The notes beneath the pieces were generated by a model. It searched no databases. It was not told the DNA's origin and was given only the letters and a program-made list of their open reading frames with translations. The position numbers were made by a program, and so were the translations under genes. A DNA stretch of 64,000 bases from a virus. This document shows, piece by piece, positions 5,576 through 49,062 of this stretch. Position 1 is the stretch's first letter. Every line of letters starts with the position of its first letter. Location of the stretch: IMG/VR virus record IMGVR_UViG_3300035698_012408, one strand, 5' to 3'.

Positions 5576-6160
5576 TTAATCACCTTCGTCGCATTCCTCC
5601 CTGTTGACGTACTCCACTCGAAACGTGCCCAGTTCGTTCGGTTCGTCGACCATCGACGCCCGCAACATGTCTGCGACCATATCACTGAGCCCGCGGCGTC
5701 TGGCGTTCGCCTCCATCTCTGGAGCCGATGACATTTCGACCGACCACCATATCGCCACGTCGTGGATGCCCCAGAACGAGAGCGGTACACGGGTGAAGCC
5801 TCCGATAAAGCGGAAGCCCATCTCCGTGATAGCCCACATCCCAGAACGATTTAACGGATTATTCGGATTCTCAGAAAACTGCCGAATGAATCCATAGTGC
5901 CTCAGCACGTTAAGCATCTTGTTGTAAGCCTGCCCGTCAGGTGCGAAGTCGCGGCAATGCACCTCGACCCCGACACCAGCAGCGGCCAGTCGTCGCAAGA
6001 TGGCAAAATGCCCGCTGACCAGCTTGTATCGCTTGACGCGATTATGAGCATGGCACACCGGACATACGCAGCCATCGCCACCCACCCGCTCACTCTCCAC
6101 AAAAGCGCAGAGCGTCGGGTAAGTGGTTTCATCAGTCGGAATCATGCGGGATGCTGGCAT
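5576..6160 (-). CDS. hypothetical protein with CxxC zinc knuckle
   Basis: Trimmed to the ATG at 6160 (MPASRMIPTDE...), just after the thyX stop at 6162. Contains CVCPVCHAH. Confidence 0.6.
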   Translation of the reverse strand: MPASRMIPTDETTYPTLCAFVESERVGGDGCVCPVCHAHNRVKRYKLVSGHFAILRRLAAAGVGVEVHCRDFAPDGQAYNKMLNVLRHYGFIRQFSENPNNPLNRSGMWAITEMGFRFIGGFTRVPLSFWGIHDVAIWWSVEMSSAPEMEANARRRGLSDMVADMLRASMVDEPNELGTFRVEYVNREECDEGD

Positions 6161-6161
6161 G

Positions 6162-7103
6162 TTACACTTTCTGGTACTTAGGAACCCAGAAGCCGTTCTC
6201 GTCTTCCTCGAAGTCACCGAAGATCATTGGCTCTTTCTCGGCCATGATCTTGATAACGCGAGAGAAGACGTGCAGGATCTCTTCCTCGGCCGACTCTGAA
6301 GTTCGCATGGCGATGACGTGACGTAACGCACGGAGGTTGCCGGTCCAGACGCCGCCAGTGGCGACACCCATCGGGACGATACGCCGCATCATGGACGTGA
6401 TCTGCTTCTTCCCGTGGAACTTCGAGTCCGGGGCAAGCTCTGCGGCCCAGAGGTCCATCAACAACGTATAATTTGCTTCAGTCTGCGCAAACGCTCGACT
6501 AAAGATCTCCCGTGAAAGCTGTTTTCGCTGGTCAAGTGTCAGCGACTCGACAGCGGGCGGCGAGTGAAATACAGAATCGGCCTCCGCATCCGCCTCACTC
6601 ATACCTTTACGTGCCAGCCCGAACTGTGAGGAAACACAGGTCACCTCTTCGCTAGTGTAGACGTCCTCGCCCTTCAGCGAGTCCGGCACCCAGTACGGGA
6701 TGTCGTCGAAGCGGATGTACCGCATGGAACCCTCGGAGATCGCCCAGCCGGCCCGGTGGCGGTTCATCTCGCCCGTGAAGACACGGGAGACGTTCTCGAA
6801 GCTGAACGTGTAGACGGCATGCTCCAGGACCGACCCGTGACCGCTGGCCAGGATGTTGTCCAGGTACGCAAGGTAATCCTTACGCACACGCGTAATGTTG
6901 GGGTTCAGTTTGGAATTCACCTCGAAAGCCTTGTAGCATCGCTTGGCCGCTAAGGCGATCAGCAATGCAGGGTTGGTCACTGCCCCGTCTTCGGGCATGT
7001 TGTGATCTTCGACTCCGATGAAGTCAAGCCACTTCTTCACTTCGTCCTTGTCTACTTCGCTTCTGGCGATGTTGAATACGCCAATTTCTACTGGTCCCGG
7101 CAT
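6162..7103 (-). CDS. thyX: flavin-dependent thymidylate synthase ThyX
   Basis: ThyX signature RHRAGWAISEGSMRY (RHR-x7-S-x-RY). ATG at 7103 preceded by AGAGGAAACA. Confidence 0.9.
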   Translation of the reverse strand: MPGPVEIGVFNIARSEVDKDEVKKWLDFIGVEDHNMPEDGAVTNPALLIALAAKRCYKAFEVNSKLNPNITRVRKDYLAYLDNILASGHGSVLEHAVYTFSFENVSRVFTGEMNRHRAGWAISEGSMRYIRFDDIPYWVPDSLKGEDVYTSEEVTCVSSQFGLARKGMSEADAEADSVFHSPPAVESLTLDQRKQLSREIFSRAFAQTEANYTLLMDLWAAELAPDSKFHGKKQITSMMRRIVPMGVATGGVWTGNLRALRHVIAMRTSESAEEEILHVFSRVIKIMAEKEPMIFGDFEEDENGFWVPKYQKV

Positions 7104-7114
7104 TGTTTCCTCTG

Positions 7115-7717
7115 CTATCTCCGATTCCTCTGGCGGCAGTACCGCTCTTGCCAGCAGGCCCGCGCATCGGACCACCGGCGGAATCGACGTTTGAGTTTAT
7201 CCATTTCCTTAACATCATCACCCGAGTAACCGCCCCAGATGTCGAACCACGCGTATGAGAAATGACTACCCTTGGGTATCTCCCACTCGTGTATGTCTGA
7301 CTGGATGATCTCCAATCTCGGGTCAATCAGGTGCGGGCTGACGAGCTTAATCACGTCGGGTGAGATCTCCACGACCGTAACACGCTCAACAGCCTTTTCC
7401 ATCAGCACCCCGCGAGCCACGACCCCAAGGCCTAGACCCGCGATAAGCACATGCCCACCTTCTTTACTGCAATGCCGTATCGGGGCACTGTTCGTCTCGA
7501 TCTCTTCAGCCGTGTCAGACATGATGATCTCTTTGCCGTACATCAGCCGCGTGTAGTTGCCGGCCGGTACGAAACCAAAGCCCTTCATGGCAGCCCGTAG
7601 CTTCGTCCTATCCGACTCCTCCTCCGATACCGAAAACTTCTCGATCGTCCAATCGCCCGACTTCCCCTCAGGGATATGCGGGACTTGATACTTCAACCAC
7701 CAAGGGTCGCTGCTCAA
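7115..7717 (-). CDS. class I SAM-dependent methyltransferase (spermidine-synthase-like fold)
   Basis: Motif I VLIAGLGLGVVARG, acidic motif II VTVVEISPDV, IIQSDI, WFDIW. TTG start coupled to the upstream stop (TTGA). Confidence 0.6.
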   Translation of the reverse strand: MSSDPWWLKYQVPHIPEGKSGDWTIEKFSVSEEESDRTKLRAAMKGFGFVPAGNYTRLMYGKEIIMSDTAEEIETNSAPIRHCSKEGGHVLIAGLGLGVVARGVLMEKAVERVTVVEISPDVIKLVSPHLIDPRLEIIQSDIHEWEIPKGSHFSYAWFDIWGGYSGDDVKEMDKLKRRFRRWSDARACWQERYCRQRNRR

Positions 7718-9686: not shown

Positions 9687-10493
9687 TCACAATTCAACAA
9701 TGCGTCGCGGCGGCATTACCGGCGGCGACTGGATAATAGCTGGCGTGCCAGTAGCTTCATGCAACGTGGCCGCTACGCCCGGATCAAAATCAGCGCCGCA
9801 CGGGGGCTGATCAAATCCACGGCGCGTGGCTGCCCCTTCTCGCCCTAGTGTGTCCGCGTTGACCCGCACACCTGTCTTGAAATTGCAGACCCTCGCGTCC
9901 TGCTGTCGCATCATCTCACCAAGCATGGTATCTCCACCTCGGTGATCCAGTGCCTTCCACGGATAACTCCAGCGATACAACCACTCGGTGCGGATGGTCC
10001 ACCAGCCGCCTGTGATAAACTTGATACGACCAAGGTTGACCGGCTGGCCGTTATACCACGGCTGGGCTTGCACCCACTCACGCTGCTGCCCCTGCCAGTC
10101 GATCGTGTAGACCGAGCCGAGCATGTCCGCGTTGACCATAGACTGCTCCACAAGGTGCAGCCAATAGTCCTTACCCGGTGCGCTGAGCTCATAACCGGTC
10201 AGGTACGAGTCATCATCAAACCACATGAAATACGGCGTCTCGACCGGCTTGATACCGTGGACCATCTGCCGCATCATCGGATACTTATGGATGTTCTCGC
10301 TGGATTCCCAGATGCAGTCATCCGGCACCCACGATTTCACCCAATCGGCTACGTCATCAGATACCTGATTGAGCCCTACCCGAAGATTCAAATGATCCTT
10401 GTCGACCGTGCTAGCAATCGACGTCAGGCACCGCTCCGCAAGTCTGGGGTTATCACCGTAAAGCAGCACCCCGATAGTGAATTTGTCCTGCAT
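9687..10493 (-). CDS. glycosyltransferase, GT-A fold (family 2-like)
   Basis: N-terminal FTIGVLLYGDNPRLAERCLTSI, typical of GT2. DxD-type FMWFDDDSY. ATG at 10493 with AGGAG upstream. Confidence 0.65.
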   Translation of the reverse strand: MQDKFTIGVLLYGDNPRLAERCLTSIASTVDKDHLNLRVGLNQVSDDVADWVKSWVPDDCIWESSENIHKYPMMRQMVHGIKPVETPYFMWFDDDSYLTGYELSAPGKDYWLHLVEQSMVNADMLGSVYTIDWQGQQREWVQAQPWYNGQPVNLGRIKFITGGWWTIRTEWLYRWSYPWKALDHRGGDTMLGEMMRQQDARVCNFKTGVRVNADTLGREGAATRRGFDQPPCGADFDPGVAATLHEATGTPAIIQSPPVMPPRRIVEL

Positions 10494-11021: not shown

Positions 11022-11972
11022 TTATGTAGAAACCGCAGCTGCCTTGCCGCGACGTTTCTTCGAGCTTGGTTTTTTACTATCCAGGTCGATCTGACGTGGC
11101 TCTTTACTGCCCTTCTCCGCCTGGGTTTCTTCTGCGGCCTGCCGCTGTTGCAGCACGGCATTACCGTGCTCAATCACGCGATCAAGCATATCGCCGTTTG
11201 CTGTTGTAGCTTCGCCGATCAGGAACATCAGCGTGCGGACCTCGGCAAGGTCGTCTATCAGGTCCTGATCCAGATCATCCGGTGGAGTGTTCAGCACATT
11301 CGTGAAGATATTGTTGGTATCTTCCTCTTCGCCGTCACCATTCCAGATCGAATCATTCTTACGATTCCACTGCTGGCTCAGCGTGAGCATCTGCCGCACC
11401 TGCGCTGCCAGCGTCTTCGGAATCGCGTGCTTCCGGCCGTGTCCAACCGCTCGCTCCTCCCGCTTCTTGATCGCGTCATGCAACGCACCGGGGTCCCACA
11501 TTTTATCGGTGGCCTCCCGTGCGTATTTCTCCCGCTCCTCCTGCGATGCCAGCGTGAGAAGATAGGACACATGCCCCCAGTGAAGCTGATAACCTGTGGC
11601 ATCATTCTTCATGCTGATCAGTATCTCCAACGCCTCCTCGTCGTACATCTTGGCGAAGGCTGCGGACTTCCGTAACGTGCGGGCCTGCGTAGATAACGCT
11701 TGTTCGATCAACCGCAGTCCCGGCAGTCCGTTGTGTCCGAGATACTTTGTCGCGTCGCCATCGATCTCTTTACAGATCTTCCCAATCTTGTAGTAGTAAC
11801 GCAGATTCTCCGCACGTAGATCGTTGACCTGCTTCTCGATCTGATTGAACTTCCGCTTCAACGGTTGATTCATCTGCTCGATTGCGGATTCACGTTGCTC
11901 GATCATCTTCGATGGCGTCACATCCATCGCTTTTTTGCGTTTCTGCTTCGCGTTCGGTGATTGCCGTCCCAT
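11022..11972 (-). CDS. hypothetical protein (basic termini, coiled-coil-like N-terminus)
   Basis: 316 aa with an ATG start. Confidence 0.6.
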   Translation of the reverse strand: MGRQSPNAKQKRKKAMDVTPSKMIEQRESAIEQMNQPLKRKFNQIEKQVNDLRAENLRYYYKIGKICKEIDGDATKYLGHNGLPGLRLIEQALSTQARTLRKSAAFAKMYDEEALEILISMKNDATGYQLHWGHVSYLLTLASQEEREKYAREATDKMWDPGALHDAIKKREERAVGHGRKHAIPKTLAAQVRQMLTLSQQWNRKNDSIWNGDGEEEDTNNIFTNVLNTPPDDLDQDLIDDLAEVRTLMFLIGEATTANGDMLDRVIEHGNAVLQQRQAAEETQAEKGSKEPRQIDLDSKKPSSKKRRGKAAAVST

Positions 11973-17447: not shown

Positions 17448-20400
17448 TTATGCTGAAATTGCGGCGTAAACTTCTTCCGGCATGCCTTCACGTTCGGCCT
17501 GCGCAGACGAGATACCTTCTCCCCAGTTAATCTGGATGTCCTGGTCGATCCCAAAGAAATAAGGTTCCTTCACCGGCATCGGCGTGTTGTCTAGGTATCT
17601 TGGCCATATCGGCACACGATTAACCATAGTTTCACGAATAACGCTAGGTCGAGTGATTTCACCCGTCGCATTCGTCTTGTCGATGGCGAACGGGATAACC
17701 TGCTCGAACGGAACCTCGAACAACAGGGCATCATGAATCTGGAGCAGCATGCGGAAGGGTACCTCAGGGCTCGCGATACGGAACTGCTGCACATTGTAGA
17801 TTGCCTGCCACACCGCGTCAGCCACGGTGTTCTGAATCGGGAAGTTCTGAGCCTGTCGCTGCTGCTCAGCAATTACGCTACGCTCCTTGCTTGTGATGAA
17901 ACGACGAAACCTCCCAAACGCGCCGACCATCCACTGTTCGTTCTGAGACCTGTGCCGGCACGCTTCCAGAAACGCACCAACGCTAGGATACTGCTCGAAG
18001 TAGAACGCGATCATCTGCTCACACTCAGCCACCGATACGTCAACACCTTCTTCACGGCATTGTCGTGCGATAGCCTCGGCACTCCGACCATACGGGATAC
18101 CAAAATTCACGTTCTTAGCTGCAACACGTAATGGCGAATGCCCACTCTCCTTCAACCCGCGTTTCGTCGCCGGGCAGTCGAGTTGGAATGTTCGGACAGC
18201 CGTATTGCTGTGAATATCATGATGATCAGGATGATTCTCCGGCAACGTGTTACGCCGGACATGTTCAATCATGTTCCGATCGTTCGCGAGCCATGCGATG
18301 GCCGCAAGCTCCGCACCAGTGTAATCCGCTTCGATCAATACGTGACCGGGTGATGCCCGGAATATCGTACGTACCGGCGCCTTATATAAAGGCTGCGGGA
18401 AGATCCGGCGATAATCGCCGTGAGCTTCCATCTCTCCAGTCTCCTTGTTCTTACGGCGATAGCCGAGAATTCGGGAGTAGTCGCCTTCTCGCCTCTTGGA
18501 GATGTTCTGCAACGGGGGTCTGGCACTTGAGCCTCGGCCCGTCTCTTTGTTCTGCGAGATATGCGTGTGAACACGACCATCCGTCATTACGCATGCTGCA
18601 AGACCTTTACCGTAAACACGGTTTCCGTCGTCATCTTGCACGTAGGCCGTAGCATCCTCAGTCATCAAGGGCGGGCGCAATGACATCTTGAGAACTTGAG
18701 TGATAAACTTCAAATCCCGCAGCTGCATCGCCAACGGGTGGTGGTGGCCAAGTATGCCCAGCACCTCTTTATCCGTCGACGGACTATACTGGTGTGTTTC
18801 GCCTCTTGCTACCAGATCATGCCACAAGCGTGGCCGCTTCCCTGTCGATTTAATTGGGGTCAGCCCAAGGGATAGCGCGTCAGGTGGTCGAATCGCAATA
18901 CACTGCCCTGTCGCCTTGTCGCGTTTGAATGCGTACTCGTCCCCAAACAGGAACGCCACACATTGCTTCGGGCTTTCGGGATTGAAAGTCGGCCAATTGA
19001 TCTGCTGCCGAAAATCTTCGAGCAACCGCACACGGCCGTCCATAAATATCGACGTTAGTTCGTCGACACGTTCACGGTCAAGCATGATGCCCGTCATTTC
19101 CATTTCCAGCACGCCAAGACTAGCCAAGTGATTGCGCCAATACGGCTCCCAACTACTGTTGTCGTACCAATCACTGTCCAGCAAGCCCCCATCGTCGAGA
19201 TGGGCCATAGCTATACGCCGCGTGACGTCTGCGTCATACTGCGCATAATTCTCACCCCATTCGGGATCGCGCGACCCTGGGTGCAGCACCCATTCGGGCA
19301 GGAATCCGAAACCTTCAAGGTCCTCCTTCTTTAGACTGTGCTGTTTACAATACCCTTCGATCGCCTTCTTCAAGCCGGCATCATAGACCGGCGCTTGTGT
19401 CAGTCGCACCGTCATATCAGTCAGTCGGTAGCTCGCCGTCTCATTGACCGCGTGGTACATCAGCCCGGTATCGAACCCGCCCTGCGCCCGACACAGCTCC
19501 ACCGCTGGAGCCGCTTCATAGGACTTACGGACGTCGATACCCTCGTGTATCAGCCACGGAAGGTCAGCACGAAAGAAGTGACCGCCTACCCTCGGGCGAT
19601 ACTCGGTCGCTGGATCTGGTTGCAGCAAACGGTTAAGTTCGCTGACGGCGTGACCGATCGATGGTTTGAACGCGTCAGAGCCGCCCTGGTGCCGCAGCAC
19701 GACGCAGATGCCCTCCCCGTGGGAAGAACTAAACTGCACCGTCCGCAGGTACGCACCGGGCTCTCCTGGGTTCTCTCCATGCCATTCCGCATCTACCGCT
19801 ATTATCCGCCGTTTAGGGTCAGGATCAGCGATAATCTCATCCACGATGTTCTGCAACTCGCGGTACTTAGAAACCACTCGGTGGTCAATAAATGTCTCGC
19901 GTCCACCGATTTCCGCACCGTTCACCAGACTGAGAAACAGCGCAACCTGGGCTAGGAGCTCGGGATAGAGCTCCGTACGCCTGTGAACGGCTGCCGGATG
20001 CGTGGCCGCCATCACCTTGCACGTGTGATACTGCGGGTCCTCCCCACGCTCAAACGTCGGGAAAGTGTATTCCTCCACACGCCCTACCATAGCATTTACG
20101 CCATAGTTCGTGCCGAGAAGCCACTTAGACGCGTCCGAGCCGAGACACAGGATGTAGTCAGGGCGTACCAGCCGTAACTCCTGCTGCAATAGGATTTCGC
20201 AATCCTTCTTGTGTGCAATCGGCAGGCCGTCAGCCTGCACGTCCAGCGTCATGAACTTGACCAAATTGGTGCAATACCAGTCGAAGCTCTCTGTCTGCGG
20301 GACGCCCAGCTCTGTTAGGACATCAAAGAAGATCTGTGCCGCGGGCGACACAAGGTTCTGCTGGTGCTCTACCTCGTCACGTAGCGGATTCTTTCCGATA

Positions 20401-20789
20401 ATCATGACCTTCGCTGGTCGCGGCCCGCCATTCATGTTCTGGGTCTGATCACCGATAAGGTGCCCCGGGACGAAGCTGGCGTGGGTAGGTACGCCGCGAA
20501 CATTGACCGGCATCATAAACTGTTCGTCATACAATGCCCGTCTGTAAAGGTAGTGCAGATTAGGCCCGTGCGATTCTACGGTTTTGACACTGCCGAGCTT
20601 TCCGTACTCCGGCATCGGGTCACCCATCGCACAAGCCATCCGCACGAAATCCTCTCCCGGCAAAGGCATGCCTGGAGCGTCAAGCGGATAGAACGGAAAC
20701 TGCTCGTCCACGTCAGGTGGCAGTACCGCGTTCGGATCACGGAGAATCTGAAACAGATCACCCGCGTGTGTGTTTAACCCGTTGTCCAT
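17448..20789 (-). CDS. polA: family-A DNA polymerase with 3'-5' exonuclease domain and N-terminal UDG-family-4-like domain
   Basis: Pol motif A DYTGAELAAIAWL, motif B RVAAKNVNFGIPYGRS, motif C LLQIHDALLFEV. Exo I IAVDAEWHGE. N-terminal KVMIIGKNPLRDE...YCTNLVKF...ATHPAAV is colinear with UDG family 4. Confidence 0.9.
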   Translation of the reverse strand: MDNGLNTHAGDLFQILRDPNAVLPPDVDEQFPFYPLDAPGMPLPGEDFVRMACAMGDPMPEYGKLGSVKTVESHGPNLHYLYRRALYDEQFMMPVNVRGVPTHASFVPGHLIGDQTQNMNGGPRPAKVMIIGKNPLRDEVEHQQNLVSPAAQIFFDVLTELGVPQTESFDWYCTNLVKFMTLDVQADGLPIAHKKDCEILLQQELRLVRPDYILCLGSDASKWLLGTNYGVNAMVGRVEEYTFPTFERGEDPQYHTCKVMAATHPAAVHRRTELYPELLAQVALFLSLVNGAEIGGRETFIDHRVVSKYRELQNIVDEIIADPDPKRRIIAVDAEWHGENPGEPGAYLRTVQFSSSHGEGICVVLRHQGGSDAFKPSIGHAVSELNRLLQPDPATEYRPRVGGHFFRADLPWLIHEGIDVRKSYEAAPAVELCRAQGGFDTGLMYHAVNETASYRLTDMTVRLTQAPVYDAGLKKAIEGYCKQHSLKKEDLEGFGFLPEWVLHPGSRDPEWGENYAQYDADVTRRIAMAHLDDGGLLDSDWYDNSSWEPYWRNHLASLGVLEMEMTGIMLDRERVDELTSIFMDGRVRLLEDFRQQINWPTFNPESPKQCVAFLFGDEYAFKRDKATGQCIAIRPPDALSLGLTPIKSTGKRPRLWHDLVARGETHQYSPSTDKEVLGILGHHHPLAMQLRDLKFITQVLKMSLRPPLMTEDATAYVQDDDGNRVYGKGLAACVMTDGRVHTHISQNKETGRGSSARPPLQNISKRREGDYSRILGYRRKNKETGEMEAHGDYRRIFPQPLYKAPVRTIFRASPGHVLIEADYTGAELAAIAWLANDRNMIEHVRRNTLPENHPDHHDIHSNTAVRTFQLDCPATKRGLKESGHSPLRVAAKNVNFGIPYGRSAEAIARQCREEGVDVSVAECEQMIAFYFEQYPSVGAFLEACRHRSQNEQWMVGAFGRFRRFITSKERSVIAEQQRQAQNFPIQNTVADAVWQAIYNVQQFRIASPEVPFRMLLQIHDALLFEVPFEQVIPFAIDKTNATGEITRPSVIRETMVNRVPIWPRYLDNTPMPVKEPYFFGIDQDIQINWGEGISSAQAEREGMPEEVYAAISA

Positions 20790-32100: not shown

Positions 32101-33214
32101 GTTGTGGCCGCGCATAATTCGCCTTATATTCCTCAAACATATTTGTGATCTCAGCAAGCGGATCAGGTGCTGCAAGCAGCCGCTGCACGCCGTGATAGAC
32201 CGGAGAATCCGTAGGAACAAGCTCACCCACTGCCGTGAGCAGGTTATCGAACGCCCCTTCGGGCGTATTCACCATGTCCACCTCCACCGTCTCCTCGTTA
32301 CCGAGATTTCGTGGTTGGTGGAACAGATGGAACTTGTCCCCGAGTGCCGCTATCAAGCGAGTGTAAGCCTCCGGGATCATGTCATAGTAAGTTGCGCGTA
32401 GCATAGGCTTCGCTATGTGCGGTGGCAGATCGTGCCGCTGATCCACGGGCAGCGCCAACTTCCTAAGACACTCCGCGAACGCTTCCTCCGTCGTGACCGT
32501 GAATTCGGTGTACCCACGAGTAGCCAGCTGGACCCGCTTCGCAATGAACTGATCCTTGGCCTCATCAACCTCCAGAATGTAGAAATACTTGTGAGGCGGC
32601 TCATCGATAGCCTGCATGCTCGTGGAGCCCGGCGAATACAGCGTGACAGGGTCTCCATTGGCTGCTACGCCCGCGTACTGCTTGGTGACATGGAAGTCGC
32701 CAGAGAACACCGTGAGCTCACGGGGTAGCTGCGAGAGGCTTCCATCAGTGTGCCCAATAGGCTGCACCTCCGACCAAGACTGATGCGATAGCAAAATCTC
32801 CGCGTCAGGAGGTATCACCGCCAGCTTTTCGCCCAATTTGTCAGATGGGCAGTAATCCAGCCCGTAGAATTCGACCCCGTTGACCTCGAACATCTGCTCG
32901 TTCACGTGACACGGCCACGGATGAGCTGAACACCACGGCGGATCAGCCTTGTCATGATTACCTTGAATAAAGTACACAGAGAGCCTCGCGTGCTCCATGC
33001 GGTTCATTTCCGTCGTAAAAGCAGTCACAGACGCAGAATCAGGACGATCCTGGTCGTACATATCGCCGAGAAGTATCAACGGCAACGACTGATGCACGCA
33101 CGCGTCAACGAGCTGCGTCAGACTGTAAAAAGCATCCCCGGCGAGTTCCGGGTGCTTCGCCCACGTGTGGAGCCGGAGATGATTATCCCCAGAAATCAAG
33201 GCAATTTTGATCAT
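32066..33214 (-). CDS. sbcD: Mre11/SbcD-like nuclease (T4 gp47-like)
   Basis: Calcineurin-like phosphoesterase motifs MIKIALISGDNHL, LILLGDMYD, FIQGNHD, SHQ. Trimmed to the canonical MIKIAL start at 33214. No SD precedes it. Confidence 0.85.
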   Translation of the reverse strand: MIKIALISGDNHLRLHTWAKHPELAGDAFYSLTQLVDACVHQSLPLILLGDMYDQDRPDSASVTAFTTEMNRMEHARLSVYFIQGNHDKADPPWCSAHPWPCHVNEQMFEVNGVEFYGLDYCPSDKLGEKLAVIPPDAEILLSHQSWSEVQPIGHTDGSLSQLPRELTVFSGDFHVTKQYAGVAANGDPVTLYSPGSTSMQAIDEPPHKYFYILEVDEAKDQFIAKRVQLATRGYTEFTVTTEEAFAECLRKLALPVDQRHDLPPHIAKPMLRATYYDMIPEAYTRLIAALGDKFHLFHQPRNLGNEETVEVDMVNTPEGAFDNLLTAVGELVPTDSPVYHGVQRLLAAPDPLAEITNMFEEYKANYARPQHGEDPSGVSAG

Positions 33215-33215
33215 T

Positions 33216-33232
33216 TTGGTTTCTAAGTACCG
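33216..33232 (-). promoter_or_regulatory. 17-nt conserved motif CGGTACTTAGAAACCAA (minus-strand reading), copy 1
   Basis: Identical 17-mer at 49072..49088. Both copies lie immediately upstream of the first gene of a minus-strand gene block. Confidence 0.4.
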
Positions 33233-33249
33233 CTTGGGTGTTAAATTTG

Positions 33250-33573
33250 TTATGGTATAAACCCTGCATCCTTGAGCGCCTGTACGAGCGACGGGGAGAG
33301 AATCGTAACCGGGACGGCCCCAGTACAATGCGAGAGCCCGCAACACGGGCAACGCATTTCTGGACTGTTTCGGAGCATGTCATTGCGAACTGCTATGCCG
33401 TGGATCGTGTCCTCGAATAGCCTGTCGGATTCTACCAACTTATCCGCCAGACCTGCACGTTCAACCGTGCTACTTACGCCAAGTGACGACGTTAAGTGGT
33501 TGACCGTGTGTAACATAGGGCAATCCAACTGGAAAGCCTTGTGATACAGATCATGAAATAGTTCGGATGCCAT
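33250..33573 (-). CDS. hypothetical small protein (CPCCGLSHC)
   Basis: ORF track 33250..33768 trimmed to the ATG at 33573 (MASELFHDLYHK...). The longer version would overlap csrA. Divergent from csrA with only 31 nt between the two starts. Confidence 0.35.
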   Translation of the reverse strand: MASELFHDLYHKAFQLDCPMLHTVNHLTSSLGVSSTVERAGLADKLVESDRLFEDTIHGIAVRNDMLRNSPEMRCPCCGLSHCTGAVPVTILSPSLVQALKDAGFIP

Positions 33574-33604
33574 TTTATTGCAACCATAGGAAGGAGCCAG
33601 AAGA

Positions 33605-33820
33605 ATGTTAGTGCTATCTCGCAAACGCGGAGAAAGAATCTTAATTGGTGACAACATAACAGTCACCGTGGTTGACCTCCGAGACGACAAAGTGCGTCTC
33701 GGCGTCGAAGCCCCGCGAGAGGTACCGGTTAATCGACCGGAAGTTCTCCAAAAAAAGAACGCGGCCAAAGCTGCCGCCGCGGCTACCCAGACACCGCAGG
33801 ACCAGTCACAGTCGGACTGA
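33605..33820 (+). CDS. csrA: carbon storage regulator CsrA/RsmA homologue
   Basis: MLVLSRKRGERILIGDNITVTVVDLRDDKVRLGVEAPREVPVNRPEV is colinear with the CsrA consensus (MLILTRR.GE...IGD.I.V.VL...G..VR.G..AP..V.V.R.E). AGGAGC lies 7 nt upstream of the ATG. Confidence 0.9.
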   Translation: MLVLSRKRGERILIGDNITVTVVDLRDDKVRLGVEAPREVPVNRPEVLQKKNAAKAAAAATQTPQDQSQSD

Positions 33821-34628
33821 ATGGTGTCACCGTCCTCGCGGGCTCGCCACGCTGGCGTTTGAACAGCTCGCGAATGTCACTCTCGCTATTACCTAGCACC
33901 TCTCGAACAGACGAGAACACGAGGAATCGCTGTGCGAGTATTGTAGGTGACGGCAACGGAACGCCGGTATTGATGTAAAACGGCGGAAGCGTTTTGTCCG
34001 TGGCTCCCCAGCTGACCATGTAGAAGCCAAGCATGGTGCAGAGCCACGACAGATACTCACCAAAGCCCCCTGGCCACTCGTTACACCGTGTTGGTGTCAG
34101 CAGCTTACGTTGGTATAACACGCCGACAAACTGCGGACTCAACGCCATGAACGCGTCGGCCAGTGCGGGCGGTGGGGTCTCGACATTCTGATGCGGGATC
34201 TCCCATTCATAGAACAGGTTGGTTGCGGCATGAAAGGCCTTGGCGTGACCACTGGTAGTGTCTTGCACTCCCAGCAACCCTACACCCTCCTTGCTAGTCT
34301 GATCTAGCAGATACGCATCGAATGGTTGACCCATCACGAGACACGAATCATCCAAGAAGATGACCTGCTTGTACGAGATACCCTTATCGATCGCCCACTT
34401 GAGCCCGTGCATGCGATGGAACCCGGAACAGGCATCCTTGTCGACGGAGGTATGAATCACTTCATGAGCGCCCTCGGCCGAAAGAGTTTTGATGGTGTTC
34501 GTCTCGTCGACGGCCACCGTGAATGTCGAACCACCGGGGCACGACCATTGAATCGAAGAGATCAGATCATTCAGGACGTACTCGCCCCGGGCAGAACTGA
34601 TCACGAATAACGTGTCAACATCGTACAT
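33783..34628 (-). CDS. putative glycosyltransferase-like protein (GT-A-like, DxD candidate FLDDSC)
   Basis: ATG at 34628 with GGGAGCAG upstream (alternatives 34640 and 34649). N-terminal beta-strand LFVISSARGE and VIFLDDSCLV resemble a nucleotide-sugar binding fold. The 3' end overlaps csrA convergently by 38 nt. The product call is tentative. Confidence 0.5.
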   Translation of the reverse strand: MYDVDTLFVISSARGEYVLNDLISSIQWSCPGGSTFTVAVDETNTIKTLSAEGAHEVIHTSVDKDACSGFHRMHGLKWAIDKGISYKQVIFLDDSCLVMGQPFDAYLLDQTSKEGVGLLGVQDTTSGHAKAFHAATNLFYEWEIPHQNVETPPPALADAFMALSPQFVGVLYQRKLLTPTRCNEWPGGFGEYLSWLCTMLGFYMVSWGATDKTLPPFYINTGVPLPSPTILAQRFLVFSSVREVLGNSESDIRELFKRQRGEPARTVTPFSPTVTGPAVSG

Positions 34629-34649
34629 AACTGCTCCCATTAAAAGCAA

Positions 34650-34679
34650 ACAGTCCAGCGATGTGACTCGCTGGACTGT
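34650..34679 (-). terminator. intrinsic-terminator-like hairpin downstream of hldE
   Basis: Perfect 12-bp stem ACAGTCCAGCGA/TCGCTGGACTGT with a 6-nt loop, followed on the minus-strand RNA by UUGCUUUUAAU. Confidence 0.5.
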
Positions 34680-34745
34680 TGCCGATCAGGTAATGTGCGC
34701 TCGTAAAAACGTGCCGGGCTGAGCGCGAGAACTTCCATCATTCAC

Positions 34746-34766
34746 TGCATAATAGGCAATTATGCA
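34746..34766. promoter_or_regulatory. perfect 8-bp inverted repeat TGCATAAT-N5-ATTATGCA
   Basis: Seen directly, 8 nt beyond the hldE stop codon. Function unknown (operator or hairpin). Confidence 0.3.
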
Positions 34767-34773
34767 ATGGTTG

Positions 34774-36231
34774 TCAACTCTTCTTCGTAGAGTTCTTTGC
34801 ATTATCGTCCCCGAGCCGTGACGAGCTTAAATTGAAAATAATAGGGGTCAACGACAGTTTTCCGCCGTGTGACGCCACATAATCTGCACCTGGGATAGGT
34901 TCTGCGGCCGCGTCTTGCCCCTTCACCAGAACATCTGGCTTCAACTGACGCACAAGCGATTCGACATCCCCATCGAACAAAAATACGGTGTCCACAACAT
35001 CCAACAACGCCAGATGTGACAGTCGATAGCTCTCGCCAACGAGCGGTCTATTGTCGCCTTTGAGCTCCCGCAAACTGGTGTCATCATTACACGCCACCAC
35101 AAGACAGTCGCCTTGCCGTACTGCTGCGCGGAGCAGTTCGATATGTCCAGCATGCAACCCGTCGAAGCAACCATTGGCTAATACGATTGACTGTCGTCGC
35201 CGACGCCGTCGCCGTACAAAGGCCAAGGCGTCATCACGATCCATACATTTGGCAGCCCATCCGGTAGCCTCGTATCGAAATTCGTCGACGGCGTCACGAT
35301 GAGCCGGCACGACACCGCGATGACGCACCACCATGCCCGCAGCGTACATAGCAAACTGCACGCAAGTATCAAACGACTTGCCTTCCAAGTACCCGACGGC
35401 CATCGCCGCCATCACAGTATCACCAGCGCCGCACACATCATAAATCTGTTGCGGACTGGACTGAAAACTGTGGATCTGGTTATCCCAGGGATTGAAATAC
35501 ATGCAACCGTCCGACCCCTGCGTCATGAGCACGGAGCCAAAGTTACCAGCTCGCCTCAACTCCTGCAAGATGGACTCAGGCTCCCCAGCGAACACACCAG
35601 GATGCACGACGTTGTAGCGATCCACCATATCACGCGCTTCGTTGCTGTTGGGCTTCAGCAAATCCACGTTCTCGTATTGTTCAACGCAGTCCGGGCGGCA
35701 GTCTACGAAAATCGGTATGGCGAGTTCCTGACATCGCTGCCGAAGCGCACTCCACACCGCGTCCGTCATCACGCCTTTCGCGTAATCTGCCACACATACC
35801 AATCGTACGGCCGTGCCCTCTGCGAGCCCGTAATTGAGCCCCGCTATCACGGCTTTGTCATTGCTCAATGGCAGCGTCTCATCATCCGCACGACACAGAT
35901 ACTGACCACCGGCCATGATCCGCGTCTTCACGCTCGTGCGTGTACCGTCCGGCCCTTGCGGCAAACACGACACTACACCAGCTTCGTTGAGGAGTTCCCC
36001 AACCCTTCGCCCGGCAGCGTCGTCGCCTACCACGCCAAGCAGCTTCGCATGTCCGCCGAGCGTAACTATGTTGTGGGCGACGTTACCCGCACCACCTACC
36101 GATTCCGTGAAGTCGTCTTGGGCTACGACAGGAGCCGCTGCCTCGGGCGATACACGGGTCATTTCCCCGCATACCGCCCTATCCAGCATCACGTCACCGA
36201 TCACCAATACCGTAGGTTTCGGATCACTCAT
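34774..36231 (-). CDS. hldE: bifunctional D-beta-D-heptose 7-phosphate kinase / D-beta-D-heptose 1-phosphate adenylyltransferase (HldE/RfaE)
   Basis: Domain I VLVIGDVMLDR...RVSPEAAAPVV...ESVGGAGNVAHNI...VCGAGDTV. Domain II IVLANGCFDGLHAGHIELL...VACNDDTSLRELKGDNRP. Colinear with E. coli HldE. ATG at 36231, 8-nt overlap with the upstream stop. Confidence 0.9.
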   Translation of the reverse strand: MSDPKPTVLVIGDVMLDRAVCGEMTRVSPEAAAPVVAQDDFTESVGGAGNVAHNIVTLGGHAKLLGVVGDDAAGRRVGELLNEAGVVSCLPQGPDGTRTSVKTRIMAGGQYLCRADDETLPLSNDKAVIAGLNYGLAEGTAVRLVCVADYAKGVMTDAVWSALRQRCQELAIPIFVDCRPDCVEQYENVDLLKPNSNEARDMVDRYNVVHPGVFAGEPESILQELRRAGNFGSVLMTQGSDGCMYFNPWDNQIHSFQSSPQQIYDVCGAGDTVMAAMAVGYLEGKSFDTCVQFAMYAAGMVVRHRGVVPAHRDAVDEFRYEATGWAAKCMDRDDALAFVRRRRRRRQSIVLANGCFDGLHAGHIELLRAAVRQGDCLVVACNDDTSLRELKGDNRPLVGESYRLSHLALLDVVDTVFLFDGDVESLVRQLKPDVLVKGQDAAAEPIPGADYVASHGGKLSLTPIIFNLSSSRLGDDNAKNSTKKS

Positions 36232-37570
36232 TTGCCTTGACTTCCACGTTGATGACACCGTCAGGTGTCGTGAAATTGTAGGTACCGATAATATTCTCGC
36301 GGGGCGGAAGCTCCGCTACCGGATGCTCCATGTCCTCGCCACGAATGACGAACGGATCAACGTAAGGACCCTGCTCGCCATTCACCACGTCGATACGTGC
36401 CATCAGCCCTTCCGCGACGGGCACGGAGAACGGATAGATTGCATCGCCAATCGCGACATTACCCATCGGTTGCCCTTTCACGGCAAGTGCCGACATGACC
36501 GACTGGTACTCGGCTTTACGGATCGTGATCGATCCAACACCGATCTCCGCCAACGCTGCACCTTCCGGCGTCTCGGGCGGTGTCGGCAACGAGTCGTCGA
36601 TCACCTCGAACTTCTGGATACCGAGCCCCTGCATCTGCTCGCCGGTGTCGGTTGTGAAGTCCACATAACTCTTGCCAGCCGCATCAGGCGCGGTGATGGC
36701 GTCCACGACGCCGCGAAACTGCCGCTCGTTTGGGCCGTCATACCGCACACGTTGCCCGGCTGCGGACGGTCGAACCGCGTTCGCCGCTTTCTTCTTCCCT
36801 CCGCCGCCGCCAGTCTTGCCCGTCCGTGGCGCTCTGGGCGCCGGCTCCTCCTTGAACGCACCAGCAAGGAATTGCTCCTTCATGGCGTCATTCACGAGGA
36901 ACTCCTGCAACGTCATGGGCACGGGCGTATTCTGACTCTCCGCCTCGCGGATGATGTCAATATACAACGCCGTGTACTCGACCACCTCCTTGGCCGACCA
37001 CTGGTGACAGCTTTGCTCCTCTGCCGCCTTCTTCGTGCGGGGCAGCAGTGCCTTGAGCGCGTCGTTCGGGTGCTTGAGGTTCTCGCCGTCGAAGTCCGCG
37101 ATCGTCGCGTACAACGTCAAGAACGTCTCGAACGGCAGCGTGGGCGTCAGCTGACGCATCCACAGGTAGTCGACGACGAGCTTGATACGCTCACCGTCAC
37201 CCTTGTACCGCTCACAGCCGCCCTGTTTCGGGAATTCCCGGAGACATTGCAGGATCGACGGCTTCTCGTCCGCGATGGCCGCGTGTTGCTCCGCCACGGT
37301 CGTCTGCTCCGCCAGCCCGGCCTGCTGCACCTGAACCGGTGGAACGGACGTAGGCTGCGGCGGCACGACAGCCGCCACGGGGCCTGTAGGCGCCGGGGTC
37401 GGCGGCGGGGCCGTCGGCATCGGTGGAACCTGCGTCGGCCCGGAACCGGCCACTGGCGACCGCGCCGGCGGCTGTGCCGGCGGTTGGGCCGGCGGCTGCG
37501 CTGGGGGCTGCTGCCCTGGTGCCGTCTGAGTCTGCGGGGGTACGCCCCAATTCGCTTGATGCTGCGTCAT
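36224..37570 (-). CDS. hypothetical protein, Pro/Gln-rich N-terminus (PPAQ repeats)
   Basis: 448 aa. AAGGAG lies upstream of the ATG. Translationally coupled to hldE. Confidence 0.65.
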   Translation of the reverse strand: MTQHQANWGVPPQTQTAPGQQPPAQPPAQPPAQPPARSPVAGSGPTQVPPMPTAPPPTPAPTGPVAAVVPPQPTSVPPVQVQQAGLAEQTTVAEQHAAIADEKPSILQCLREFPKQGGCERYKGDGERIKLVVDYLWMRQLTPTLPFETFLTLYATIADFDGENLKHPNDALKALLPRTKKAAEEQSCHQWSAKEVVEYTALYIDIIREAESQNTPVPMTLQEFLVNDAMKEQFLAGAFKEEPAPRAPRTGKTGGGGGKKKAANAVRPSAAGQRVRYDGPNERQFRGVVDAITAPDAAGKSYVDFTTDTGEQMQGLGIQKFEVIDDSLPTPPETPEGAALAEIGVGSITIRKAEYQSVMSALAVKGQPMGNVAIGDAIYPFSVPVAEGLMARIDVVNGEQGPYVDPFVIRGEDMEHPVAELPPRENIIGTYNFTTPDGVINVEVKANE

Positions 37571-37661
37571 TCTAAATTTCTCCTTCAGTTGTCATCGTCG
37601 GAAACGATGGCCTTCCAAAATAAAGTAAGGTACAGTAAGTTTCTGAGTCCTATCAATTTTT

Positions 37662-38618
37662 CTATATCGGCTGCTCGTTCGTCTGCTTGCGACGACGTAA
37701 CGCCCCGAAGTCCGCCTGTAATCGCATACGGTAGGTGCGTCTCGCGTCCAACCACTGTAGCGTGCGATCAACGTCGCCACGCAGCAACAGAACTGGATAC
37801 CGGCAAACACGCGCTACCGCCCCAAATATTGCCGCCCGCGTGGGGCACTCATGCCGGGTCACCTTGCCGTGTATAATGTCTTCGGGTGTCGGGTAATCTG
37901 CCAGCACCTTGTATAACCGACGATGACATACCCGCCAGCCCCGCGGCACTGGTTCTACAGTCGTCAACGAAAACGCGCCATGATGCTCCACCCTGCGAAA
38001 TATTGCTGCTTTCCGCCGTGATACCAAATCCTTCATATAGACGCCGATCCACTTTGCTTCACTCCATTGAGGCGAGAATGTTTCTGGAACCGTCGAAACG
38101 TACGTCGTGTGCTTCTGCTCAATCAGATGAAACGGGAAAACAGTATCGTCTATCTCATCTAACTGAATTGCCCGCAAATTGCGACCATCGCAGTGCGCGA
38201 CCACCGCATCCACCTGAGCCTGTAAACCTCTCCGTGTGTTATGAAATAGTGAATCCACACCCAGCCATACCTTACGCGCAGACCGGGCCCAGCAAAACGG
38301 ACACAAGTCATTAAGTCGACAAGACCGTGTGAGTGGTTTGACCGCTACAAACGTAGGCATGCAATTTCTGCAATATCCGACAGCGTGCGGGTTCGCCGTG
38401 CCATGCGGTGTCCAACCTAACGCCGCCAACGCCCCCAACCGTGCCCGCCACACAGCCACGAGCTGTTGAGTCTTCTTCCGAATCGACGCCTGCGCTCTCA
38501 CCTGCGTCGACCCCTTGGCGGGGCCCACCAACGGATAAAGCACCGTGGCCCGCTGAATCGCATCAACGAGTCGCATCGGTACAAATCCGTTAATGGAGAA
38601 TCTCGTATCACTTATCAT
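37662..38618 (-). CDS. hypothetical protein with CRLNDLCPFCWARSARK motif
   Basis: 318 aa. The Cys motif resembles the C..R.CP.C.WRR..K element of Rep_1-type rolling-circle initiators, but I cannot see a convincing HUH/Tyr motif. Confidence 0.6.
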   Translation of the reverse strand: MISDTRFSINGFVPMRLVDAIQRATVLYPLVGPAKGSTQVRAQASIRKKTQQLVAVWRARLGALAALGWTPHGTANPHAVGYCRNCMPTFVAVKPLTRSCRLNDLCPFCWARSARKVWLGVDSLFHNTRRGLQAQVDAVVAHCDGRNLRAIQLDEIDDTVFPFHLIEQKHTTYVSTVPETFSPQWSEAKWIGVYMKDLVSRRKAAIFRRVEHHGAFSLTTVEPVPRGWRVCHRRLYKVLADYPTPEDIIHGKVTRHECPTRAAIFGAVARVCRYPVLLLRGDVDRTLQWLDARRTYRMRLQADFGALRRRKQTNEQPI

Positions 38619-47191: not shown

Positions 47192-47914
47192 TCAATGGCC
47201 ATCCGGGATTTCGCCCTTTTCGATCGCGACGACCTTCAGACCGTAAGACTTGAGCGTCTCCATCAACAGCTCTGCATAAGCGAGAGCCGCCTCGTCCTGC
47301 GTCACCTCGTCGCGGAGGAACTGGGCGAACAGAATACGGGTCCGTTCGCGGACGTTGGTGATCGTGCTCGCGTCTTCGCCCATGACGCCGTCCGTCAGCG
47401 GTGTTGTCACCAGCTGCTTGACCGGTAACTTGTTCTCCCCCGCTGGTTCACTGGCGGAGATCCAGATCGGCACACCGTCATACGGGCTGACGGGGCCGTC
47501 GATCGCGGGATCATTGGAGAGCGTCTCCAGATAAGCCGTATCGAACCCGACGAGCGGGCCGCCGGCCAACCGGCGAATCTCGACGAGCTCCTCACCGCCG
47601 CCCGCCGCAATCGTGGCGGTGCCGACATAGGAGGTACTGGTAACACACGCGTTGGGCGTACGTGGCTCAGCCGCCGGCGACGTGCCATAGCACCCCACCT
47701 TGCGAACACTGGCCTCCCGTGGGATGCGGAAAAGGTCAAAAGACCCCTGACACGGTTCGTCATCGATCCGCTCCGCCACACGGTTACGACAAACCCGCAG
47801 CTCACCGCTCACAACAGCGACACCGTTGAGAAACACGAACACGTCGTGTATCAGCAGATCACCAAACTGGCAGTCATGATGCTGCCCCGCGGGGAAAATA
47901 ATTTTCTGCATCAT
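47192..47914 (-). CDS. hypothetical protein
   Basis: 240 aa, ATGA coupling. Confidence 0.55.
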   Translation of the reverse strand: MMQKIIFPAGQHHDCQFGDLLIHDVFVFLNGVAVVSGELRVCRNRVAERIDDEPCQGSFDLFRIPREASVRKVGCYGTSPAAEPRTPNACVTSTSYVGTATIAAGGGEELVEIRRLAGGPLVGFDTAYLETLSNDPAIDGPVSPYDGVPIWISASEPAGENKLPVKQLVTTPLTDGVMGEDASTITNVRERTRILFAQFLRDEVTQDEAALAYAELLMETLKSYGLKVVAIEKGEIPDGH

Positions 47915-49062
47915 TCGTCTTCATCTCCATAATTGAGATCAATAGCGCGTAGATTCCGGCCACCATGCTGCGGCGGCGGAACAGGAGGACGCTCAATGGT
48001 ATCACCCCAAAGGGCTAAACCGTGAGCGCCGAGTCGCCGCCGAAAGCCGGCAAGCGTGACCGGGCCAATATCTGGACAACCCAAGAAATCCGAAGCCGTG
48101 AACAGCAAGACGTCACGAACAGAACGAGGCGACTGAGTTTTTCCAAGACCAAGCCGCCGCATGGCATCAGCCACGCGGGCCGGTATCTTGTCACCGTAAA
48201 GGTTCGTCCACGGCTGACTCAAGATCGTTGCATCCTCGATACCGAGGCGGTCTTCGGGATCTTCCCCGAGGAACTCAAGCTGCGCGACCTCCAGGTCACT
48301 ATGGGTCACCCGCTGGTGGAAGGCCACGGCCACATCATGCACCGCGTCAATTACCGTCTCGTGTGAGGCACCGGGTTGCAACAACAGCCTGTCGTAACCA
48401 CCCGAGGCGATTACCTCCGTCACCAGCGCCCGGTAGGTTTGCGAATTGTCAATATACTGATCCCGCCACGCGATGGCGTCCAGCATCGCCTGCACCCACG
48501 ACGCCTTATCCGTGACATAGCGGACGGTCCAACCGTGGTCATTCAACCGTTGGTGGTTATAAGCAAATGCCCGCCGCTTCAGCACACCCTCGGCGACAAT
48601 TCGCACGTTAAGCCAACCGCGTCGCGTGTCGCGAGTTTGATAGATATTGGCATGCGACTGCGCAAGCGAGGCATCCGTAACATCCGCACCGTCCGGGACC
48701 GCCGGGAGATCCGTCACGAGCAACCCAAAGCGGGAAGCAACCGCCAACCGCGACTCTTGCCGCCCGGTCGCACGACCTTCCGTAAGACCCTGAAGCAGCC
48801 CAGCATCGAAGCCCGCGGCGTGCCCCTTATCATGACCCTTCTCGACGATCTCCTCGATCGACTGCTCCGCCTGCCACTTCATCTGTCTGACCTCTTCACC
48901 AGCCACCTCGACCAGAGAATAAGCCTGGCGCGCTGCGTCATCTATCGCTCGCGTCCGCAGCTGTTTGGACTTCTTCCAACCGCTCCGATAACCGGCCAAA
49001 TAACCGATCGGATGGATGACCGCCTCGTGGAGCCATCTCACAAATCTTCCAAGCATATTCAC
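47911..49062 (-). CDS. hypothetical protein with C-terminal RpoA-alpha-CTD-like helix-hairpin-helix
   Basis: IPARVADAMRRLGL...VRDVLLFTASDFLGCPDIGPVTLAGFRRRLGAHGLAL is colinear with alpha-CTD (L.vR..N.L....I..igDL......eLl..pN.G.KSl.EI...L...GL.L). First gene after the 434-bp intergenic hub. GGAGGTG SD. Confidence 0.6.
   Translation of the reverse strand: MNMLGRFVRWLHEAVIHPIGYLAGYRSGWKKSKQLRTRAIDDAARQAYSLVEVAGEEVRQMKWQAEQSIEEIVEKGHDKGHAAGFDAGLLQGLTEGRATGRQESRLAVASRFGLLVTDLPAVPDGADVTDASLAQSHANIYQTRDTRRGWLNVRIVAEGVLKRRAFAYNHQRLNDHGWTVRYVTDKASWVQAMLDAIAWRDQYIDNSQTYRALVTEVIASGGYDRLLLQPGASHETVIDAVHDVAVAFHQRVTHSDLEVAQLEFLGEDPEDRLGIEDATILSQPWTNLYGDKIPARVADAMRRLGLGKTQSPRSVRDVLLFTASDFLGCPDIGPVTLAGFRRRLGAHGLALWGDTIERPPVPPPQHGGRNLRAIDLNYGDEDE

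Follow-up and report, generated by a model that had tools for sequence, protein, structure and literature searches.

Whether a phage makes its own activated heptose, and to which acceptor such a sugar would be passed, are the questions raised by a locus in the IMG/VR virus record IMGVR_UViG_3300035698_012408. We analysed a stretch of 64,000 nucleotides of this record (hereafter the window), in which a homologue of the bifunctional heptose enzyme HldE is encoded beside a gene for a glycosyltransferase-like protein, named GT281. From the sequence we conclude that the phage very probably produces activated heptose itself. We also lean, with modest confidence, towards reading the two genes as an accessory nucleotide-sugar cassette in the replication and recombination arm, in which GT281 would transfer the heptose activated by HldE to an acceptor. 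The two genes are located as follows.

34774–36231, minus strand: hldE homologue, 485 residues, with predicted PfkB-type heptose-7-phosphate kinase and cytidylyltransferase-like heptose-1-phosphate adenylyltransferase domains.
33783–34628, minus strand: GT281, 281 residues, a soluble acidic protein predicted by its AlphaFold2 (AF2) model and Foldseek to be a GT-A-fold glycosyltransferase of an unclassified family.

The HldE homologue has the PfkB kinase domain in its N-terminal half (Pfam 8.7e-40) and the cytidylyltransferase-like domain in its C-terminal half (CTP_transf_like, 6.4e-12), which is a full-length, bifunctional architecture. The NCBIfam HldE model matched the 485-residue open reading frame with E = 3.1e-92, and the top three NCBIfam models for this protein were this equivalog and the models of the two RfaE domains. 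The motifs GDVMLDR, SPEAAAPVV, GGAGNVA, GAGDTV and NGCFDGLHAGHIELL are present. Among solved structures, the best relative of the kinase half was the Burkholderia heptose-7-phosphate kinase HldA (4e84, 1.3e-39), with the GAGD(T) and N-terminal motifs aligned, and that of the C-terminal half was the adenylyltransferase HldC (5x9q, 1.1e-19). Ribokinases and other PfkB structures scored far below HldA, and the next kinase families reached about 65 bits or less versus 236 for the HldE kinase domain model.

Conservation was then compared column by column. In an alignment of 120 homologues, 87 columns were at least 93% conserved in 75 cellular HldE proteins. Of these, 81 are retained in the window protein, which is 35–39% identical to cellular proteins; GAGDT, HxGH and the GDVMLD...SPEA motif near the N-terminus are among them. 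The kinase residues D13, D17, S28, E30 and G268–T272 are kept, and so are the adenylyltransferase residues N353–D357, H360 and H363. The gene is predicted to encode a full-length bifunctional HldE homologue with intact catalytic motifs. The first-pass annotation had described it in this way, and the Pfam, NCBIfam and motif checks agreed with both domains, at scores under the equivalog cut-offs.

GT281 could not be placed by sequence profiles. No match was found in Pfam (even at E ≤ 10), NCBIfam, PHROG or PADLOC, the PDB profile search was also empty, and the protein falls in no CAZy or Pfam glycosyltransferase family by Pfam, NCBIfam and PHROG profiles. Its homologues were found in related metagenomic contigs only. 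An AF2 model was built from 17 homologues, with a predicted local distance difference test score (pLDDT) of 78.7 and a predicted template-modelling score (pTM) of 0.79. Foldseek returned 390 PDB matches for this model at E ≤ 1e-3. The top 50 listed matches are all glycosyltransferases, with template-modelling (TM) scores of 0.32–0.47, and we take all of them to be of the GT-A fold. XXYLT1 came first (1.1e-6), then B3GalT6, GtrB, GpgS and DPMS, and GTB was also matched. GT281 is thus modelled with a GT-A glycosyltransferase fold, as a single Rossmann-like alpha/beta/alpha domain that superposes on known GT-A enzymes, and the GT-A-like nature guessed for this gene in the first-pass annotation was borne out by structure prediction, although profile searches gave no glycosyltransferase family. 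The candidate DxD motif proposed there, FLDDSC, does follow a strand (residues 85–92), but only its second aspartate is invariant (D94, at the end of this strand), while D93 varies (D, S, H, A). D41, at the end of strand 35–41, is also invariant. The whole family is acidic (isoelectric points 4.6–6.0) and has no membrane segment. By its position and fold, GT281 is a candidate consumer of the HldE product.

The distribution of the two genes was examined in a comparison set made up of the window and 14 further phage loci with the Mre11/Rad50 region in common. HldE is present in 10 relatives (L013, L004, L005, L014, L015/L108, L016, L028/L114, L011/L109, L113 and L036), with identities to the window protein from 62% down to 35% and syntenic loci on contigs of 155–230 kb. 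It is absent from four loci that carry Mre11/Rad50 (L110, L111, L112 and L115). GT281 was found in 8 of the 11 HldE-carrying phages, the window counted, and in 0 of the 4 loci without HldE. HldE, with or without GT281, is an accessory cassette between the upstream gene p448 and Mre11 in this phage clade. The restriction of GT281 to HldE-carrying loci is consistent with a transferase in need of the product of HldE. That the phage makes its own activated heptose is very probable because the HldE domains appear intact, are kept down to 35–36% identity in a syntenic clade and are closest to heptose-specific enzymes.

The setting of the cassette is that of a phage. The window encodes a gpA-type large terminase, PolA, RecA-like, DnaB-like and primase-like proteins, helicases and Mre11/Rad50-like proteins, together with the nucleotide-metabolism genes for a class II-like ribonucleotide reductase (RNR), ThyX and a protein of the dUTPase/dCTP deaminase (DCD) type. 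This content confirmed the replication and recombination arm recognised at first pass (RNR, Mre11/Rad50-like, helicases, PolA, RecA-like). No tRNA was found in the window. An identical HldE protein in an identical context was found in three independent assemblies (Logan, ENA and JGI), the longest contig with it being 215,361 bp, and the GC content is 0.549 at the locus and about 0.55 over the whole window. A chimeric assembly with host lipopolysaccharide (LPS) genes, named earlier as a possible source of error, was rejected, since the gene order is shared by the three assemblies and ten relatives. Megablast of 12 kb against GenBank phages gave nothing, and TerL and PolA of the nearest isolates are only about 22–32% identical; the phage is therefore uncultured, and it comes from an undescribed clade of large phages of about 155–230 kb. 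The 'Moraphage' jumbo lineage was considered as this clade and rejected, because it is placed with PolB, whereas the window phage has PolA. Single-protein IMG/VR scans with the haloacid dehalogenase (HAD) protein and with the RNR found no relatives, and a single-protein scan of genome contigs with HldE found no close relative.

What would the cassette do? Judging from family membership, HldE would phosphorylate heptose 7-phosphate at C1, the 7-phosphate would be removed by a 7-phosphatase, and HldE would then adenylylate the heptose 1-phosphate. The remaining pathway genes were searched in the window and about 8 kb flanks of the 215,361-bp contig, by tblastn and by the Pfam hits of the called genes. 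GmhA (SIS isomerase), HldD and GT9 were all lacking in this range. The first-pass annotation had recognised neither GmhA nor GT9 in the window, and our result agrees with this and extends it to the flanks, the part of the genome beyond the window that was covered for gmhA, hldD and GT9. The GmhA step is not encoded in the window, and the host would supply it. The product would be the D,D-heptose form, because no HldD epimerase is nearby. For the phosphatase step, a candidate was examined in the window.

4378–5073, minus strand: HAD-IIIA protein of the GmhB/HisB-N subfamily (NCBIfam and alignment), with the nucleophile Asp replaced by Ala39.

This protein passes the HAD-SF-IIIA model TIGR01662 (62.9 versus a cut-off of 44.6) and scores below both GmhB models (NF006506, 107.2 versus 178 bits; TIGR00213, 61 versus 149.6). 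Its CxH...CxCRKP zinc/lysine motif is retained, with C133, H135, C141, C143, R144, K145 and P146 invariant. Motif I reads MARDG in the window versus LDRDG in 17 of 17 aligned relatives, motif IV has a one-residue deletion, and the sequence with Ala39 is identical in a second assembly. The likely start is the ATG at 5073, which has a GGAG ribosome-binding site and an 83-nt overlap with the upstream gene; the relatives start 4–5 residues before the first strand. Relatives P0170–P0172 score 111–127 against the NF006506 cut-off of 178 and pass TIGR01656, and relatives with an intact motif stand at the equivalent place in L012 and L018, beside the SEC-C/DCD-dUTPase gene. The clade thus appears to have a GmhB-like gene whose nucleophile is lost in the window phage only. 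The HAD protein of the window is probably inactive as a phosphatase and could be a pseudo-enzyme or a decaying gene, so the 7-phosphatase would probably be that of the host. The GmhB-family assignment made at first pass holds for the HAD-IIIA subfamily but not for the GmhB cut-offs or the nucleophile. The self-made heptose that it proposed is likewise very probable from the intact, conserved HldE and its heptose-specific relatives, though probably without a working phosphatase of the phage's own.

Several points weigh against the cassette as we read it. HldE falls below the cut-offs of its best models: 309.6 bits versus 521 for the HldE equivalog NF008454, 235.7 versus 345 for the RfaE domain model TIGR02198, and 129.4 versus 181.5 for the RfaE domain model TIGR02199. 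In addition, the C-terminal (F/L)xxGxSTT motif is IIFNLSSS in the window protein and TVD or TLD in several clade members, so that specificity could differ. These deviations bear on substrate drift, in which the HldE homologue would activate another sugar phosphate or use another nucleotide and the product would not be ADP-heptose. Scores at 59–71% of the NCBIfam equivalog cut-offs, clade-specific changes at near-invariant columns (S148A; P178C in the window and P178C/A in the clade; N295M; loss of the Pro before residue 424), the degenerate STT motif of the clade and the lack of GmhA in the window are consistent with drift. It is opposed by the wide margin, given above, by which heptose-specific enzymes are the best matches, by the HldE-type N-terminal motif GDVMLDR...SPEAxxPV, which is kept, and by the intact GmhB-like partner in related phages. 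We regard drift as very unlikely. According to a commentary on Tang et al., an Arg upstream of the STT motif is tied to CDP-/UDP-heptose synthesis; the window protein has no Arg five residues upstream of its STT-type motif.

The spacer between the two genes also speaks against a joint unit. Its features are the following.

34649–34680, minus strand: intrinsic-terminator-like hairpin with a U-run behind it, after the hldE stop and before the GT281 ribosome-binding site (terminator scan).
34749–34777, minus strand: sigma-70-like promoter match (11 of 12 positions; TTGACA, 17 nt, TATTAT) that lies at the hldE stop and precedes the hairpin (scan).

The strong hairpin after hldE that the first-pass annotation had noted was present in both the terminator scan and RNAfold. 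It has a terminator-like stem of 13 bp (34680–34649, minus strand), which RNAfold lengthens to about 16 bp, and the predicted folding energy of the whole hldE–GT281 spacer is −55.2 kcal/mol (z = −4.56). Seven relatives (L004, L005, L011, L013, L014, L015 and L016) have, at the equivalent position, a strong hairpin with U-rich sequence after it; the stem sequences are unrelated. We read it as a conserved intrinsic terminator that would close a p318–p448–hldE unit. Because this terminator separates them, hldE and GT281 need not be co-transcribed. A riboswitch or a CsrA site was rejected as the function of the hairpin: the stems are unrelated among relatives and each is followed by a U-run, as expected of a plain intrinsic terminator. 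An Rfam scan of 33000–38000 gave nothing. The promoter scan found one site versus 2.7 expected by chance and is not significant alone; TTGACA is also present in L013. A promoter match immediately before a terminator is odd and could be due to chance.

The association of the two genes has weak sides as well. Since synteny extends over the whole region throughout the clade, adjacency by itself says little, and the co-occurrence counts are small and phylogenetically non-independent. Three relatives (L011/L109, L113 and L036) carry HldE without GT281, and the HldE product must serve another consumer in them because GT281 is absent there. These three of the eleven HldE-carrying phages are one point in favour of a role in the host envelope. 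In that case, HldE would raise or sustain the ADP-heptose pool of a Gram-negative host, and host heptosyltransferases, or GT281 working on the core or on other glycans of the surface, would maintain or alter LPS during a long infection, which could keep the envelope intact or prevent superinfection and adsorption of progeny to debris. The apparently inactive HAD and the lack of GmhA imply a host with a running heptose pathway of its own, and HldE-type genes are annotated in cyanophage records, including that of P-SSM2, which carries 24 genes hypothesised by its authors to be LPS-biosynthesis genes altering the host cell surface. The top fold match of GT281 is moreover a GT8 enzyme. GT8 also includes LPS core transferases. 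Against an envelope role, such core transferases are peripheral-membrane enzymes, while GT281 is acidic and without a membrane segment. The heptose of typical LPS cores is in the L,D-form, and no HldD was found in the window and its flanks to make it; GT9 heptosyltransferases were lacking in the same range. We consider an envelope role unlikely.

The DNA of the phage is another conceivable acceptor. GT281 or another phage transferase would then put heptose from ADP-heptose on a hydroxylated pyrimidine and shield the DNA from restriction or CRISPR nucleases. This has precedents: Pyle et al. reconstituted mono- and di-heptosyl-5-hydroxymethylcytosine (5hmC) from a phage cluster with a HAD/kinase, a cytidylyltransferase and a glycosyltransferase, and reported GT-A-fold DNA transferases to be common in viral metagenomes, and in RB69 and DLP3 the UDP-arabinose destined for DNA is made by three kinds of enzyme, an isomerase, a kinase/nucleotidyltransferase and a GmhB-like HAD. 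The cassette also sits amid replication and nucleotide-metabolism genes, and a second transferase lies beside a DNA methyltransferase gene just outside the window.

L007 13768–15283, 2–3 kb beyond the window start: CcrM-like methyltransferase and GT32-like gene.

Here the GT32-like gene (Gly_transf_sug, 5.3e-11) directly follows that of the CcrM-like N6-adenine DNA methyltransferase (NF008572, 1.7e-44), and it is a confident prediction of a second transferase in the window phage. Against a DNA acceptor, no ThyA-type hydroxymethylase, TET/JBP dioxygenase or C5-cytosine methyltransferase was found among the Pfam hits of the window, the flanks and the relatives' loci, where the sole thymidylate synthase is ThyX and the sole DNA methyltransferase type is N6-adenine (N6_N4). 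GT281 is acidic throughout its family, and the listed top 50 fold matches include no DNA glycosyltransferase. DNA hypermodification is, in our judgement, quite unlikely.

We return to the cassette in which HldE supplies GT281. From adjacency and co-occurrence, GT281 would transfer the heptose to a soluble acceptor, for which a protein of the phage, for instance one of the virion, is the most likely candidate; this is the weakest step of the scheme. A soluble protein is ranked slightly above DNA or a membrane-bound LPS intermediate because GT281 is soluble and uniformly acidic, and net charge, as a further point against our reading, is a weak guide to the acceptor. The virion, DNA and the host envelope, all named in the first-pass annotation, stay as acceptor options, with a protein fitting the properties of GT281 slightly better than the others.

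The genes on either side of the cassette were examined as possible members of it.

36224–37570, minus strand: p448, 448 residues, Pro/Gln-rich with PPAQ repeats (overlap, repeat, AF2 model).
33605–33820, plus strand: CsrA homologue, a neighbour (Pfam CsrA 2.5e-23).

The stop of p448 (36224–36226) overlaps the hldE ATG (36229–36231) by 8 nt, in the sequence ATGAGTGA, and its PPAQ repeat spans 37464–37515 with a period of 12 nt and 4.2 copies; both the overlap and the repeats had been noted at first pass and were confirmed from the sequence. In the AF2 model of p448 (pLDDT 81.9), residues 1–100 are disordered and are followed by a helical domain and beta-rich domains. No match was found in Pfam, NCBIfam, PHROG, PADLOC or the PDB profile search, and Foldseek of the model gave no PDB match at E < 1e-3, the best BFVD match being an unnamed protein (6.9e-8), so that structure prediction yielded a model with no informative fold match. 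In L111, p448 is directly upstream of Mre11 and HldE is absent between them. Because of this arrangement p448 is treated as part of the conserved backbone, and it is probably not part of the sugar module, in which the first-pass annotation had included it. Its occurrence without HldE in L111 also led us to reject it as an obligate HldE partner or acceptor, and a role as non-homologous GmhA substitute was rejected because the fold search gave no support.

All genes around the cassette are on the minus strand except csrA, which runs towards the GT281 gene and shares 38 nt with its 3' end. The csrA gene stands at the equivalent spot in five relatives (L004, L005, L013, L014 and L113), and L005 has a second copy at 5922–6131. 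It is a lone plus-strand gene amid a long minus-strand run and encodes, in a phage, a global RNA-binding regulator.

One more candidate sugar gene had been proposed in the window, as a GT2 enzyme.

9687–10493, minus strand: GT268, a conserved orphan family with an invariant WFDDDS motif (alignment of IMG/VR relatives).

Neither Pfam, NCBIfam and PHROG nor PDB sequence and PDB-profile searches supported the GT2 call, the best match being WavE at E = 0.042, and hhalign found no profile similarity to the GT281 family (probability 0.2). GT268 has relatives on 11 IMG/VR contigs (L017–L027, 35–203 kb) with 34–60% identity and conserved synteny: PolA and RecA-like genes precede it, and many loci have DUF1016 or g10505 on one side of it and g9266 on the other. 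No ThyX, HAD or dUTPase match was found in several GT268-family loci. The invariant WFDDDS is only suggestive of a glycosyltransferase. Beside this family, a DUF1016_N protein (11022–11972, minus strand; 2.9e-9) is encoded in the replication arm with conserved synteny.

How does this locus compare with known systems? Bacterial HldE (RfaE) and the split HldA/HldC share with the window protein the two-domain architecture and the motifs GDxMLD, SPEAxxPV, GGAxNVA, GAGDT and HxGH. The differences are the 35–39% identity, the scores under the equivalog cut-offs and the altered STT motif, and also the location in a phage replication arm, without GmhA, HldD or GT9 nearby. Virus-encoded HldE itself is neither rare nor new but already documented and widespread, contrary to the first-pass annotation, which took it to be no standard phage module. 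An alignment-based IMG/VR scan gave at least 572 confirmed HldE-like stretches, HldE-type genes are annotated in cyanomyophages (S-CAM1, S-SSM7 and P-SSM2) and huge phages, and heptosylated phage DNA has been reconstituted. As a commentary on Tang et al. (2024) puts it, assayed viral heptose enzymes make ADP-heptose. The window phage shares a virus-encoded heptose kinase and nucleotidyltransferase with cyanomyophages and viral metagenome contigs. In S-CAM1 the two are separate genes, whereas they are fused in the window phage, and the S-CAM1 cluster adds a phosphoheptose isomerase, an epimerase and a carbamoyltransferase beside tail-fibre genes, in contrast to the window, which has no epimerase or isomerase nearby and an orphan GT-A partner.

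The neighbours of HldE were surveyed for the best 80 loci of the IMG/VR scan. An HldD-like epimerase lies within 5 kb in 63 of these 80, GmhA in none, and a GmhB-like gene in three, each with an intact DRDG motif. The 7-phosphatase is said to be absent from viruses in the commentary on Tang et al.; contrary to this statement, GmhB-like genes are present in the clade of the window phage and in the three other IMG/VR loci.

DNA hypermodification clusters (contig 53 of Pyle et al.; RB69/DLP3) follow the same logic, in which a kinase, a GmhB-like HAD and a nucleotidyltransferase feed a phage glycosyltransferase. Unlike the locus studied here, they hold an enzyme that generates 5hmC or 5-hydroxycytosine (5hoC), either a C5-methyltransferase plus TET or a ThyA homologue, and none was found in the window, the flanks and the relatives' loci. 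Their kinases are of the aminoglycoside phosphotransferase (APH) or protein-kinase type rather than PfkB, and contig 53 has a heptose transferase of GT-B fold rather than of the GT-A fold modelled for GT281. Protein glycosylation in phages has a precedent too, as mycobacteriophage virions are glycosylated (Freeman et al. 2023, as described in a paper citing it). The likeness lies in a GT-A-type transferase, soluble and encoded by the phage, with phage proteins as its possible substrates, and the difference is that no heptose is involved. These mycobacteriophages reportedly use host nucleotide-sugars and have the transferase genes beside structural genes. Particular to the window phage are the fused HldE, which an undescribed clade keeps in its replication arm as an accessory cassette with no epimerase nearby, a glycosyltransferase partner unrecognised by the libraries, and a GmhB-like gene of the clade that lacks the nucleophile in this one phage.

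Some other genes of the window are recorded here as separate observations. The family A DNA polymerase (17448–20789, minus strand, 1113 residues) carries an N-terminal domain of the uracil-DNA glycosylase (UDG) superfamily (Pfam UDG 1.5e-14) before its exonuclease and polymerase domains. At 3032–4420 (minus strand), a dUTPase/dCTP-deaminase-like domain follows, in one protein, a long N-terminal region that has a SEC-C zinc motif; in L012 the SEC-C and dUTPase/DCD parts are separate genes (160 and 272 residues). A ThyX homologue (6162–7175, minus strand; Thy1 4.9e-36) covers 185 Pfam model positions with 250 residues, that is, with about 65 extra residues, and is followed by a small protein (7115–7717, minus strand) that weakly matches an S-adenosylmethionine-dependent methyltransferase (RrnaAD 1.5e-4). 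A protein of 383 residues (47911–49062, minus strand) weakly matches the stem domain of fukutin-related protein (FKRP_N, E = 0.005, below the cut-off) and is maybe a sugar- or polyol-phosphate transferase, or the match is noise.

The value of these results lies mainly in annotation and in the choice of a good model, and no new category is opened. GT281 adds a glycosyltransferase family that current profile libraries overlook. If the cassette works as we propose, it would be a compact two-gene system of HldE and an orphan GT-A enzyme, and a handle on activated heptose in large environmental phages. It is a rather speculative extension, and in our opinion quite a doubtful one, that the clade heptosylates its own proteins, for example on the virion surface, by means of self-encoded ADP-heptose and this unclassified acidic GT-A protein. 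If true, it would be the first case of a phage system that glycosylates proteins with heptose, and its GT-A enzyme would contrast with the autotransporter heptosyltransferases, the known bacterial protein-heptosylating enzymes, which we take to belong to another fold class. The relatives that carry the full cassette, HldE alone or neither gene form a natural comparison set that could reveal the acceptor.

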